Positions 1,780 through 47,931 of a stretch of DNA of 64,000 nt are shown here, one piece after another. The notes beneath the pieces were generated by a model. It was not told the DNA's origin. It did no database searches and worked only from the letters and a program-made list of their open reading frames with translations. This DNA comes from Escherichia coli (lineage in GTDB: Bacteria > Pseudomonadota > Gammaproteobacteria > Enterobacterales > Enterobacteriaceae). Where the stretch lies: the NCBI RefSeq assembly GCF_029227855.1, contig NZ_CP074356.1. One strand, given 5' to 3'. Both the position numbers and the translations under genes were made by a program. How positions within the stretch are numbered: position 1 is the stretch's first letter; the number at the start of each line of letters is the position of its first letter.

Positions 1780-2108
1780 TATAAGCGTTATAAATGGGTG
1801 GAACCTGTAAAGACTTCTACTCATTTATATTCTTTGTCGCCTCTAAAAAACCTCCATTTTGCCCATCCTGGACTAATCATTATCATTTTCTACAAATTCT
1901 GTGGCGTTAATTTTTCGTTGGAGTGAAAATTATTACGTCGGAGTTTGGTGGATTTTAGTCGGTATAGAATTACTTTAAATATTTGGCTTTTCAATCAATG
2001 AATTAAGTGCTCTTTAACATAATGGATGTGTTGTTTGTGTGTTTCTGTTAAGTTGGTAGATTGTGACTGACTTAAAAAATCAATAATTAATAATAGGTTA
2101 TGTTTAGT
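1780..2108 (+). promoter_or_regulatory. CRISPR leader of array 1 (AT-rich, contains GTTGGTAGATTGT box also present in the array 2 leader)
   Basis: About 330 bp AT-rich non-coding sequence directly upstream of the first repeat; the box TAAGTTGGTAGATTGTGACTG near 2049-2070 recurs at 28329-28350 upstream of array 2. Confidence 0.5.
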
Positions 2109-2686
2109 GAGTTCCCCGCGCCAGCGGGGATAAACCGATTTTGGTGGCGGGGGTGACTGGGGGAATACTGAGTTCCCCGCGCCAGCGGGGATAAACCGTC
2201 CGAGCGCGTAATAGCGCGCGCCCGGAAACAGAGTTCCCCGCGCCAGCGGGGATAAACCGCGGCACCAGGGCTGAAAGGCGGGGCCGCTAAAGAGTTCCCC
2301 GCGCCAGCGGGGATAAACCGGCCAGCGGCGCTGAGTACGACGACCTGATTAAGAGTTCCCCGCGCCAGCGGGGATAAACCGTCAATACAACAGCAATGCT
2401 GGAGCTGGAAAAAGAGTTCCCCGCGCCAGCGGGGATAAACCGGTACCGTTGAGCAATGGTGGGTAAATGGTGCTGAGTTCCCCGCGCCAGCGGGGATAAA
2501 CCGATTTAGATACGGCACACAGGAATGCGCTGGATGAGTTCCCCGCGCCAGCGGGGATAAACCGCATGGGAGTCCAGATTACAAATTCCAGAATGGGAGT
2601 TCCCCGCGCCAGCGGGGATAAACCGCGTTTAGCTCCGCAATGTTGGATATCACTGATGAGTTCCCCGCACCAGCGGGAATAAACCA
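2109..2686 (+). CRISPR. Type I-E CRISPR array (orphan, queE-ygcE intergenic), 9 spacers
   Basis: Nine 29-bp repeats GAGTTCCCCGCGCCAGCGGGGATAAACCG at a 61-bp period (2109, 2170 ... 2597) plus a degenerate terminal repeat at 2658-2686; nine unique 32-bp spacers; leader on the queE side sets orientation. Confidence 0.95.
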
Positions 2687-3140: not shown

Positions 3141-3278
3141 TATTCCTTGTAAAAACAGGGATAAACCGAACTAGTTAAAGTTTTTATTATGTTCCCTGCA
3201 TCAGCGGGGATAAACCGGACTTGTTATCATTTTTTAAGTTGTCGAACTTATGTTCCCCGCGCCAGCGGGGATAACCAT
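3141..3278 (+). CRISPR. Degenerate CRISPR remnant (three decayed repeat copies, one 32-bp spacer)
   Basis: Repeat-like copies at about 3141-3168 (TATTCCTTGTAAAAACAGGGATAAACCG), 3189-3217 (ATGTTCCCTGCATCAGCGGGGATAAACCG) and 3250-3278 (ATGTTCCCCGCGCCAGCGGGGATAACCAT); the last two are separated by exactly 32 bp. Confidence 0.6.
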
Positions 3279-19174: not shown

Positions 19175-19279
19175 GCGAGCAGCATTCCTGATTTTAAACG
19201 TGAACGCCGCTGGAAGAATTATCAGGTATAGAATGGCGTTGGGTGCTTGAGGCTGTCTGGCGTTAAGCATTCGCGAGGT

Positions 19280-19343
19280 TCCAGATGGACAAAAGCCCCA
19301 GGCGATATTTCTATCAACCTGAGGCCAGCGTTCGAACCTAAGC
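19280..19343 (-). ncRNA. Candidate Sok-type antisense RNA (sokX-like) opposite the hokX leader
   Basis: Minus-strand promoter-like elements TTGCCT (complement of 19374-19379), 17-bp spacer, TAACAT (complement of 19351-19356) overlapping the hokX SD/ATG, as in hok/sok loci; a weak hairpin plus U-run near 19280. Extent is approximate. Confidence 0.3.
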
Positions 19344-19382
19344 AATTCGAATGTTAGTCTCTTCTTTGCAGGGAGGCAAGAC

Positions 19383-19535
19383 ATGCTGACAAAATATGCC
19401 CTTGTGGCAATCATCGTACTGTGTTGTACAGTACTGGGATTCACGCTGATGGTAGGCGACTCGTTGTGTGAGTTGAGTATCAGAGAACGTGGTATGGAGT
19501 TTAAGGCAGTTCTCGCTTACGAATCGAAGAAGTAG
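19383..19535 (+). CDS. hokX: Hok-family small membrane toxin (type I toxin-antitoxin)
   Basis: 50-codon [53 protein letters not shown] with GGGAGG RBS 6 nt upstream; hydrophobic helix plus conserved Hok/Gef C-terminal pattern; below the ORF-track size cut-off. Confidence 0.75.

Positions 19536-27076: not shown

Positions 27077-27080
<4 letters not shown>
26430..27080 (+). CDS. casE: crRNA endoribonuclease Cas6e (CasE)
   Basis: Track ORF 26292-27080; start at ATG after AGGAGG RBS (MYLSRITLHTGQLSPAQLLHLVDRGEYVMHQWLWDLFPG..., 216 aa); C-terminal GCGLM-type motif. Confidence 0.85.
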
Positions 27081-28290
<1,210 letters not shown>

Positions 28291-28386
28291 GTTATCTGTT
28301 CTTTAAAAATAAGGAAATGTTTTAATTTAGTTGGTAGATTGTTGATGCGGAATAAATTTGTTTAAAAACAGTTATGTATGCTTAGT
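28291..28386 (+). promoter_or_regulatory. CRISPR leader of array 2 (AT-rich, GTTGGTAGATTGT box)
   Basis: 96-bp AT-rich spacer between the cas2 stop and the first repeat; box TTTAGTTGGTAGATTGTTGATG shared with the array 1 leader. Confidence 0.5.
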
Positions 28387-29025
28387 GTGTTCCCCGCGCC
28401 AGCGGGGATAAATCGAGATCACCGTGTTAAATAACCGATTGAACGCCGTGTTCCCCGCGCCAGCGGGGATAAATCGGCCAGGCCAATACAGTTGGCGAAG
28501 AAGCGAAGGTGTTCCCCGCGCCAGCGGGGATAAATCGACACCGGGCTGGATAAAAAAACTATCGGGAAAGTGTTCCCCGCGCCAGCGGGGATAAATCGCC
28601 GTTTGATAGCTGTTCACGCTGGCTGATGCCGTGTTCCCCGCGCCAGCGGGGATAAACCGCGCAGTTCGCTACCGAGCGTGGTTTGCTGGTCGTGTTCCCC
28701 GCGCCAGCGGGGATAAACCGGCGCACAGCGACGCGAAATCAACGAAAATTTAGTGTTCCCCGCGCCAGCGGGGATAAACCGATTGCCAGATACTGTGTAT
28801 ATCCACCGACTAAGTGTTCCCCGCGCCAGCGGGGATAAACCGCAGGGAAACCGTTCGTACTTATCGACCTCAACGTGTTCCCCGCGCCAGCGGGGATAAA
28901 CCGAAGGGGACGGCTACGGGACGCCGCCTATTGATGTGTTCCCCGCGTCAGCGGGGATAAACCGGACGCACTGGATGCGATGATGGACATCACTTGGAGT
29001 TCCCCGCCCCTGCGGTAGAACTCCC
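28387..29025 (+). CRISPR. Type I-E CRISPR array (cas-associated), 10 spacers
   Basis: Ten 29-bp repeats at a 61-bp period (28387 ... 28936) plus a degenerate terminal repeat at 28997-29025; ten unique 32-bp spacers. Repeats 1-4 end AAATCG, repeats 5-10 end AAACCG. Confidence 0.95.
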
Positions 29026-40154: not shown

Positions 40155-40875
40155 TGTGCACAGAAAACCCCCAGCTAGGCTGGGGGTTCCGGAAAGCTTT
40201 CAGCTTTAAGCCAGTTATTAAAACCCCTTTTGATTTGTTAAAACACCTTGCGGTCTGGCAACTGCAAGTGTCAAACAAGAAATCAAAAGGGGGTCCCAAT
40301 GGGGAACGAAAAGAGCTTAGCGCACACCCGATGGAACTGTAAATATCACATAGTTTTTGCGCCAAAATACCGAAGACAGGTGTTCTACAGAGAGAAGCGT
40401 AGAGCAATAGGCAGTATTTTGAGAAAGCTGTGTGAGTGGAAAAGTGTACGGATTCTGGAAGCTGAATGCTGTGCAGATCATATCCATATGCTTGTGGAGA
40501 TCCCGCCCAAAATGAGCGTATCCGGCTTTATGGGATATCTGAAAGGGAAAAGCAGTCTGATGCTTTACGAGCAGTTTGGTGATTTGAAATTCAAATACAG
40601 GAACAGGGAGTTCTGGTGCAGAGGGTACTACGTCGATACGGTGGGTAAGAACACGGCGAAGATACAGGATTACATAAAGCACCAGCTTGAAGAGGATAAA
40701 ATGGGAGAGCAGTTATCGATTCCCTATCCGGGCAGCCCGTTTACGGGCCGTAAGTAACGAAGTTGGATGCAAATGTCAGATCGTGTGCGCCTGTTAGGGC
40801 GCGGCTGGTAAGAGAGCCTTATAGGCGCATTTGAAAAACCTCCGGCTATGCCGGAGGATATTTATTTCTTTTGGT
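40155..40875 (+). mobile_element. IS200-family insertion sequence (IS200/IS605 family); ends approximate
   Basis: About 0.7 kb unit with a left-end hairpin (CCCCCAGCTAGGCTGGGGG, ~40166-40188), a single Y1-transposase gene, and a right-end hairpin CCTCCGGCTATGCCGGAGG (~40838-40856) followed by a T-rich run; IS200 lacks terminal inverted repeats, so ends are estimated. Confidence 0.6.
40299..40757 (+). CDS. tnpA: IS200 transposase TnpA (HuH Y1 transposase)
   Basis: Track ORF 40248-40757; start at MGNEKSLAHTRWNCKYHIVFAPKYRRQVFY... (152 aa); HxH motif (ADHIHMLVEIPP); near-identical to recalled Salmonella IS200 TnpA. Confidence 0.85.
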   Translation: MGNEKSLAHTRWNCKYHIVFAPKYRRQVFYREKRRAIGSILRKLCEWKSVRILEAECCADHIHMLVEIPPKMSVSGFMGYLKGKSSLMLYEQFGDLKFKYRNREFWCRGYYVDTVGKNTAKIQDYIKHQLEEDKMGEQLSIPYPGSPFTGRK

Positions 40876-46672: not shown

Positions 46673-47931
46673 GATAAAAACTCTCTTTGGGCTCGTGAAA
46701 AAAAGGCTTCATCACCGAAGTTGCCAGATTTAAGGGCGAGTGAGACAGGTTTATCCAGTGCGTTTACCCACGGCACGCCGGGAGAAATGGTTGGGCCAAT
46801 ATGAAACCCTTTTATTCCCAGGCTCTGTGTGACTACGCCGGAGGTCTCACCGCCTGCGACAATAAAGCGTGTCACGCCTTCCGCTGCTAACCGCGCCGCT
46901 AGTTGAGAAAACAGTGTTTCTACTGCCTGACTGGCTTTATGTGCACCGTATTGCTGTTGAATTGCTGCCAATGCGTCAGTGCTGGCAGTGGCAAAAACCA
47001 GTGGAGCAAGTACACTTTCCTGGCCCAGAACCCACTCTGCCAGTTCGTGTGCATAAGCGGCCAGAGTTTCAATTGAGAGGCAGCGTGCCACATCAACTTC
47101 ACGGGCTGGTGCAATTTGACGGTAATGTGCTACCTGGCAGTTGGTCATTTGAGAGCATGAACCGGAGAGCACTACGCCGCGCCCAGCGAGCGGATGCCCT
47201 GCTTTGCGAGCCTGGTTACCGTTTTCTTGCGCCCACTGCCGGGCAAGGCCAATCGCCAGACCAGAACCGCCCGTTACCAGTGGGGTATCGCGCAAGGCTT
47301 CTCCCTGAATTTCCAGATGGTGTTCGGTCAGCGCATCAAGCACCGCGTAGCGGTAGCCCTCTTGCTGTAAGCGAGCCAGCTCTTGACGAACGGCATCCAC
47401 ACCTTGTTCGAAAACATGTGCCGAAACGACGCCGCAGCGCCCTGTGGATTGCGCTTCAACCAGACGGGGAAGATAGCTGTCGGTCATGGGATTTACCGGG
47501 TGATGGCGCATCCCGGATTCGGCCAGCAGTTGATTCATTACGAACAAATACCCCTGATAAACCGTACGTCCGTTGACCGGCAGGGCCGGAGAGAAGACCG
47601 TAAACGGCGTGTCGAGAGCATCCATTAATGCATCGGTAACCGGGCCGATATTACCTTTCGCCGAACTGTCGAAAGTAGAGCAGTATTTGAAATAGATCTG
47701 TTTGCAACCTTGCTGTTGCAACCAGCTCAGTGCCGCCAGCGATTGCTGTGTGGCTTCAACCACCGGACAGGAACGCGTTTTCAGGCTGATCACCAGTGCG
47801 TCGATTGCTTCCGGCATTTTACCTGTTGGAACACCGTTAATTTGTACCGTTGGTAGACCGTTTTCCACCAGAAAACTGGCGATATCCGTCGCGCCGGTAA
47901 AATCATCGGCGATAACGCCAATCTTGATCAT
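46669..47931 (-). CDS. ygbK: DUF1537-family four-carbon acid sugar kinase
   Basis: 420-aa ORF MIKIGVIADDFTGATDIASFLVENGLPTVQINGVP... Confidence 0.85.
   Translation of the reverse strand: MIKIGVIADDFTGATDIASFLVENGLPTVQINGVPTGKMPEAIDALVISLKTRSCPVVEATQQSLAALSWLQQQGCKQIYFKYCSTFDSSAKGNIGPVTDALMDALDTPFTVFSPALPVNGRTVYQGYLFVMNQLLAESGMRHHPVNPMTDSYLPRLVEAQSTGRCGVVSAHVFEQGVDAVRQELARLQQEGYRYAVLDALTEHHLEIQGEALRDTPLVTGGSGLAIGLARQWAQENGNQARKAGHPLAGRGVVLSGSCSQMTNCQVAHYRQIAPAREVDVARCLSIETLAAYAHELAEWVLGQESVLAPLVFATASTDALAAIQQQYGAHKASQAVETLFSQLAARLAAEGVTRFIVAGGETSGVVTQSLGIKGFHIGPTISPGVPWVNALDKPVSLALKSGNFGDEAFFSRAQREFLS

Follow-up and report, generated by a model that had tools for sequence, protein, structure and literature searches.

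Two CRISPR arrays lie within the window, the 64,000-nt stretch of Escherichia coli DNA analysed here, one of them next to a type I-E cas operon and the other an "orphan" at a separate locus. The leaders of both arrays carry the same short box upstream of the first repeat, which raises the question of whether this box is an element needed for polarized spacer integration and whether the orphan array can still acquire spacers, as had been proposed from the sequence alone.

Two type I-E arrays and one integrase

The window is from E. coli, with leader A and its flanks matching strain A10 and others at 100% and the segment from cas2 to leader B matching strain JNEC-KY178 at 100%. The arrays were assigned by gene order, array A being the CRISPR II (2.3) orphan and array B being CRISPR I (2.1). 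The genes and arrays are:

1099-1770: queE
2109..2686, plus strand: array A (CRISPR II / 2.3, the queE-ygcE "orphan"), repeat 1 at 2109
3157-3276: leaderless three-repeat mini-array remnant, between array A and ygcE
3' of the mini-array remnant in gene order, minus strand: ygcE
27077..28290, plus strand: cas1e and cas2e (putative integrase for both leaders), 3' end of the I-E operon
27077-28000: cas1
27997-28290: cas2
Between cas2 and array B: leader B, 96 nt
28387..29025, plus strand: array B (CRISPR I / 2.1, between cas2 and iap), repeat 1 at 28387
Beyond array B, minus strand: iap

Array A contains nine intact 29-nt repeats (GAGTTCCCCGCGCCAGCGGGGATAAACCG), one degenerate terminal repeat, and nine spacers, and array B contains 10 repeats with three or fewer mismatches to the consensus, followed by a degenerate terminal repeat. 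Membership in type I-E is indicated by the E. coli-type 29-nt repeats, the 32-nt spacers, and the presence of cas1e and cas2e. The operon is complete from cas3 (19730) through cas2, and both Cas1e and Cas2e score above the NCBIfam cut-offs. It is the non-K-12 allele of the cas operon, which is present in 2732 of 5426 complete E. coli genomes; the encoded Cas2 is 84% identical to that of K-12, and the encoded Cas1 is a close full-length homologue of the K-12 Cas1 in PDB 5WFE (587 bits over 304 amino acids, with approximately 85% identity by a hand count on the printed alignment).

The mini-array remnant is CRISPR 2.2-like and degenerate, consisting of a half repeat (CAGGGATAAACCG) followed by ATGTTCCCTGCATCAGCGGGGATAAACCG and then ATGTTCCCCGCGCCAGCGGGGATAACC; it has no copy of the box and no leader homology upstream. 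A scan of the whole window against Rfam found no RNA family in leader A or leader B. The same scan gave gathering-level matches to the sok antitoxin RNA (111.7 bits, 19241-19398), just upstream of cas3, and to the Hfq-binding sRNA STnc490 (146.1 bits, 40166-40289).

A 13-nt box at the same position in both leaders

The 13-mer GTTGGTAGATTGT is found as two exact copies in the 64 kb, one in each leader:

2052..2064, plus strand: box GTTGGTAGATTGT in leader A (orphan CRISPR II), -57 to -45 from the leader-repeat junction
28330..28342, plus strand: box GTTGGTAGATTGT in leader B (cas2-adjacent CRISPR I), -57 to -45 from the junction

Because repeat 1 starts at 2109 in array A and at 28387 in array B, the box occupies -57 to -45 in both leaders; the spacing from box to repeat 1 is 44 nt in each, and the alignment from box to repeat is gapless. 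A box shared upstream of repeat 1 is thus real, as originally predicted. The two longer strings that had been quoted around it are located at 2049-2069 and 28327-28348, the second having been placed approximately 2 nt off.

The longest exact string common to both leaders is 14 nt (AGTTGGTAGATTGT). When leaders A and B were aligned without gaps over -70 to -1, the identity outside the box was 52%, and a run of at least 14 matches has a probability of approximately 0.003. Only one further match to the 13-mer with two or fewer mismatches exists window-wide (47849-47861), with approximately 1.1 expected by chance. The likeness between the two boxes is not due to chance. Further features are common to both leaders, namely the CTCTTTAA box, an upstream 13-mer with the IHF consensus, an A-tract at approximately -35 to -30, and the junction sequence TTAGT. 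The leaders had been described as otherwise divergent, which is incorrect, as they are homologous over approximately 120 nt with one 11-nt indel.

Correspondence to the integrase anchoring site

The box sits where an element for polarized integration is already known. Yosef 2012 found that a 60-nt leader was enough for acquisition and that a 40-nt leader was insufficient (PMC3384332). Yoganand 2017 (NAR 45:367) described a conserved region at -44 to -59 in type I-E leaders (PMC5224486) and mutated the leader in 12-bp blocks, of which CBS1 (-34 to -45) and CBS3 (-58 to -69) were without effect on acquisition (PMC5224486), whereas mutation of CBS2 (-46 to -57) abolished acquisition in vivo (PMC5224486). 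When CBS2 was mutated in vitro, the integration product and the super-shift by Cas1-2 and IHF were both abolished, while IHF binding and bending were unimpaired (PMC5224486). Within CBS2, only the central 4 bp (-50 to -53), termed CBS2(C), were essential and were named the "integrase anchoring site", or IAS (PMC5224486); when the blocks on either side of it, CBS2(L) and CBS2(R), were mutated, integration in vitro still took place (PMC5224486). Because these flanking mutants still integrate, the 13-mer extends past the core whose function is proven. The mutants were carried on plasmid pCSIR-T, another E. coli leader construct.

The box in both leaders equals the CBS2/IAS of Yoganand 2017 (PMC5224486), in agreement with the earlier claim that its position is the one expected for a polarized-integration element. 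The position is the same, as are the sequence context GTTGGT[A/G]G[A/G]TTG and the placement upstream of the predicted IHF site at -9 to -35, and there is no difference in kind between the two, the predicted 13-mer simply extending beyond the essential 4 bp. The IAS core reads GTAG in both window leaders and in array II of K-12 and BL21, and GTGG in CRISPR I of K-12:

2056-2059, plus strand: integrase anchoring site GTAG in leader A, -53 to -50, inside the box
28334-28337, plus strand: integrase anchoring site GTAG in leader B, inside the box

As summarized in later papers, the Wright 2017 structure (Science 357:1113; PDB 5WFE) has IHF bending the leader and a motif approximately 50 bp upstream of the repeat touching Cas1, and this upstream recognition motif lies at the same distance from repeat 1 as the window's box. 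The window differs from that complex in its non-K-12 cas allele, and equivalent contacts would be expected here by homology. The Cas1-Cas2 site is given as leader positions -1 to -4, adjoining repeat 1.

We therefore regard it as highly probable that the box serves the type I-E leader as its upstream docking element for Cas1-Cas2, with one integrase acting on both arrays. The sequence of the box, its position, its spacing, its conservation, the intact integrase genes, and the polarized turnover of spacers were all observed in this work, and what is known of its need in integration, of the bend made by IHF, and of the contact with Cas1 comes from experiments on other E. coli leaders. By analogy with those leaders, the same behaviour would be expected in this strain with its non-K-12 cas allele. 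Nothing found contradicts the docking-element explanation.

IHF region, junction, and proposed mode of action

A predicted proximal IHF region and a conserved junction motif were located in each leader:

2074..2100, plus strand: predicted proximal IHF region of leader A, -35 to -9, with A-tract TTAAAAAA
28352..28378, plus strand: predicted proximal IHF region of leader B, -35 to -9, with AAACAGTTATGTA at -21 to -9
2104..2108, plus strand: junction TTAGT of leader A, -5 to -1, conserved Cas1-Cas2 contact region
28382..28386, plus strand: junction TTAGT of leader B, -5 to -1

IHF sites were scored by matching to the consensus WATCAANNNNTTR. In leader A, AATCAATAATTAA at -31 to -19 agrees with the consensus at 8 of 9 positions and TAATAATAGGTTA at -21 to -9 agrees at 7 of 9. 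The leader B sequence agrees at 6 of 9 (hand count), the same number as the K-12 CRISPR I leader in that register, and for this K-12 leader IHF is required for acquisition in vivo (PMC5224486). The putative proximal sites fit the consensus moderately (6-8 of 9). Among the 76 I-E leaders described below, the register -21 to -9 gave the best match to the IHF consensus in 45.

In the proposed mechanism, IHF would bind the A/T-rich site at approximately -35 to -9 and force the leader into a sharp U-turn, which would fold the DNA at approximately -50 to -57 back onto a Cas1-Cas2 complex seated on the junction (-1 to -4 plus repeat 1). This second contact would be available only at the leader-proximal repeat and would make the first nucleophilic attack specific to the leader-repeat junction; because the contact is exclusive to the first repeat, new spacers would enter at the leader end only. 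The single Cas1-Cas2 encoded at 27077-28290 would serve both arrays in trans, since the box, the 44-nt spacing, and the junction sequence are the same in both leaders.

Conservation of the box across strains and species

Leaders were fetched by means of the Cas2 protein, unselected for the box, from 80 loci with one genome per species; the source groups were Enterobacterales, Aeromonadales, Oceanospirillales, and some Desulfobacterales metagenome-assembled genomes (MAGs). Repeat 1 was located for each locus and the leaders were aligned on the junction without gaps, giving 76 usable leaders, 55 of them non-redundant. The sequence TGGT[A/G] starts at -55 in 56 of the 76 leaders and no more than 3 nt away in five more, and CGGT[A/G] is found at -55 in another 12. 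The median number of mismatches to the E. coli 13-mer at -57 to -45 is 3-4, against 9-10 at control offsets. Relative entropy calculated over the 55 non-redundant leaders peaks at the box, the IHF core, and the junction. The box block at -56 to -49 reads T, T, G (91%), G (96%), T (91%), R, G (80%), A (80%), the IHF core block at -18 to -16 reads C (91%), A (95%), R, and the junction block has A at -3 in 95% and G at -2 in 96%; weaker signals are a T at -10 and an A-tract at -34 to -31. Only Escherichia and close relatives (e.g., Pseudocitrobacter, Klebsiella, and Citrobacter) have the 13-mer in full, and the deep core, TTGGTRGA, is kept across at least 70 species.

Within E. coli, the box is exact in all 16 sampled CRISPR II leaders, which cover both alleles of this locus (one in 331 genomes with at least 99% identity to the window, the other in 4231 genomes with 90-95%), and in all five CRISPR I leaders with the window's cas allele. 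In CRISPR I of K-12, the leader reads GTTGGTGGGTTGT at the box position. An alignment of leaders from multiple strains had been named as a check on the box, and it came out in its favour, with the box invariant in 21 of 22 sampled E. coli leaders and K-12 CRISPR I as the exception. The box itself is the same in the two CRISPR II alleles, and four of the eight positions that directly precede it are different. The box also matches the conserved I-E leader motif TTGGT[A/G]G and is identical to the box of array II in BL21 and K-12.

Several loci stood out in this collection. The Escherichia albertii leader reads GTTGGTTGATTGT, with a rare T at -51, where nearly all others have A or G. Two loci from MAGs labelled Bacillota and Bacteroidales have Enterobacteriaceae-like cas2, leader, and repeats, and in the Bacillota MAG the Cas2 shows 96% identity and the leader resembles that of E. 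coli; both contigs are probably mis-binned.

Spacer acquisition by the orphan array and array B

The array followed in the BL21-AI acquisition assay is the queE-ygcE array (NC_012947.1, 1002800-1003800; PMC3384332). This array is orthologous to array A; its leader contains AAGTTGGTAGATTGTGACTG and has an identical box. Array II of K-12, whose leader is identical to that of BL21, expands upon expression of Cas1-Cas2 (PMC3384332), and 74% of plasmid-interfering mutants of K-12 delta-hns gained CRISPR 2.3 spacers (Swarts 2012). Array A of the window was compared with those of ten strains in which leader A is identical over -60 to -1. One group of strains shares trailer spacer id 9 and another shares ids 15-16, and the leader-proximal spacers are unrelated. 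This pattern is the signature of polarized acquisition in array A. The proposal that the orphan array is able to acquire spacers is supported both by this turnover and by the activity of its BL21/K-12 orthologue (Yosef 2012, Swarts 2012). Array A of strain JNEC-KY178 has the window's spacers plus one extra internal spacer, which suggests an internal spacer deletion in the lineage of the window's array A; the remaining strains with this leader have nothing but trailer spacers in common with it.

In array B, the four leader-proximal repeats (28387-28598) end in ATAAATCG and the older ones (28631-28964) end in ATAAACCG. New repeats are copies of repeat 1 (PMC3384332), so the four repeats ending in ATAAATCG imply at least three acquisitions after the mutation in repeat 1, which shows that array B has been recently active. 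The same change alters the crRNA 5' handle (AUAAAUCG) of the newest array B spacers.

Alternative explanations for the box

The box could be kept for transcription instead of integration, as part of the pre-crRNA promoter (its start region or initially transcribed sequence). A mapped E. coli leader -10 box lies at -66 to -61 according to Yosef 2012, citing Pul 2010 (PMC3384332), and the CRISPR-1 start site is placed approximately 50 nt upstream of repeat 1; together these positions would put the start of transcription within the box or next to it. At -66 to -61, leader B reads TTTAAT, and TAGATT within the box resembles a -10 hexamer. Leader A, however, has TTCTGT at -66 to -61 and retains the box, and a G at -51 in about half of the leaders destroys the -10-like hexamer. 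Across species, -66 to -61 is poorly conserved (0.06-0.5 bits), whereas the distance from the box to the junction is fixed. Acquisition was not reduced when the -10 box was deleted in a 60-nt leader construct (PMC3384332), and CBS2 mutation blocks integration with purified proteins, where transcription is absent (PMC5224486). The box was also rejected as a promoter in its main function by sigma-70 scans, which found only CTGACT-16-AATAAT in leader A, downstream of the box; the scan of leader B found no promoter, and no scan result uses the box. We judge it quite improbable that the box is kept for transcription and not for integration, and a start-region function is possible as a secondary role. 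As a separate observation, the TTCTGT of leader A (2043-2048) stands where the array II leaders of BL21 and K-12 have TACTAT, the mapped -10 position, and from this difference the mapped promoter of the orphan array may be impaired in the window's leader A allele (331 genomes at 99% identity or more).

Identity of the two boxes might also be expected from mere common descent or recent gene conversion of duplicated leaders, with the box itself unselected. The homology of the leaders over approximately 120 nt, which includes the counterpart of the last cas2 codons, means that some shared runs are expected. The 52% identity outside the box and the low probability of a run of 14 (approximately 0.003) speak against this account, and so does the core, which stays at one ungapped offset in leaders with unalignable flanks (Enterobacterales, Aeromonadales, Oceanospirillales, and Desulfobacterales MAGs). 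Divergence between the two CRISPR II alleles, which touches four of the eight positions adjoining the box upstream and none within it, is likewise at odds with an unselected box, and descent or conversion alone is a very improbable explanation. The probability that the box is a chance match of a short G/T-rich word is smaller still. The window does hold three matches with two or fewer mismatches against a shuffled expectation of 1.1, but both exact copies fall at -57 to -45 of the only two leader-bearing arrays and the mini-array lacks the box; position and conservation already refute a chance match.

A distal leader module and the origin of leader A

A second module is present upstream of the box in both leaders, consisting of a 13-mer with the IHF consensus followed at a fixed offset by a further box, G-N-T-CTTT(A/G)A-N-AA:

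1993-2021: distal module of leader A
28283-28311: distal module of leader B

The distal 13-mers of leader A (AATCAATGAATTA, 1993-2005) and leader B (AATCAATAAGTTA, 28283-28295) both agree with the IHF consensus at 9 of 9 positions, and that of leader B overlaps the cas2 stop codon. Agreement at 8 of 9 positions or better was found in 26 of 46 non-redundant leaders. The G-N-T-CTTT(A/G)A-N-AA box is present in 67 of 79 I-E leaders. In coordinates of this box, G at -3 and T at -1 each reach 98% among the 46 non-redundant leaders, A at +7 reaches 100%, and A at +8 reaches 91%; the 100% of the CTTTRA core reflects its use as the anchor for these leaders. Start positions of the module are -75 in 35 loci, -86/-85 in 24, and -97/-98 in six, which amounts to steps of 11 bp, and leaders A and B themselves differ by one extra 11-nt unit (TGTGTTGTTTG|TGTGTTTCTGT). 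This 11-bp phasing is suggestive only, as independent changes in spacing are few. A -35 hexamer reading of the CTTTAA box (as TTAACA, or as TTGACA in the Desulfobacterales) was considered and rejected, since no -10-like partner at 16-18 nt exceeds the control level: the mean best score for such a partner at this spacing was 2.6-3.6, against 3.0 for the control.

The box could be the central part of an extended, helically phased leader arrangement outside the current E. coli model, a reading which we consider unlikely. Such an arrangement would have a counterpart in type I-F. The type I-F leader has two IHF sites and two inverted-repeat motifs (Santiago-Frangos 2021/2023), and the principle held in common is that IHF folds the leader so that upstream motifs reach the integrase. 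The window leaders resemble it further in their distal IHF-consensus 13-mer and additional conserved box. Type I-F differs from the window in its motifs, its spacings, and its Cas2/3 fusion, and for E. coli I-E a role has been demonstrated for a single IHF site and a single upstream motif. When the integrase is over-expressed, acquisition does not need the distal module (PMC3384332, PMC5224486). Some I-E leaders have multiple IHF sites and motifs according to later literature that cites Santiago-Frangos 2021, and the distal module may therefore already be described. If the longer architecture were real, the leader would be expected to undergo a second IHF-dependent fold or to touch another protein, as happens in type I-F, and the distal module would tune acquisition or array expression at native levels of Cas1-Cas2.

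The homology between the leaders begins at the counterpart of the last cas2 codons (1993-2032 versus 28283-28322; AATCAATGA versus AATCAATAA), a correspondence which suggests that the orphan array may have arisen by duplication of a unit made up of the cas2 end, leader, and array. Leader A upstream of -120, considered as a possible decayed 3' end of cas2, gave weak collinear matches to it, a similarity that falls short of significance, with the score reached by 16 of 500 shuffles, and a tblastn search of this region with Cas2 found no match.

Implications

Work published between 2012 and 2017 had already established the element and where it lies, that integration requires it, and that the orphan array is active, and the present finding carries little weight as a discovery. 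Its value is for annotation, in that both arrays of this strain have the complete leader architecture. Because both leaders retain the box, the predicted IHF region, and the junction motif and the integrase is intact, both arrays should, by analogy with the E. coli leaders studied experimentally, be competent for adaptation.
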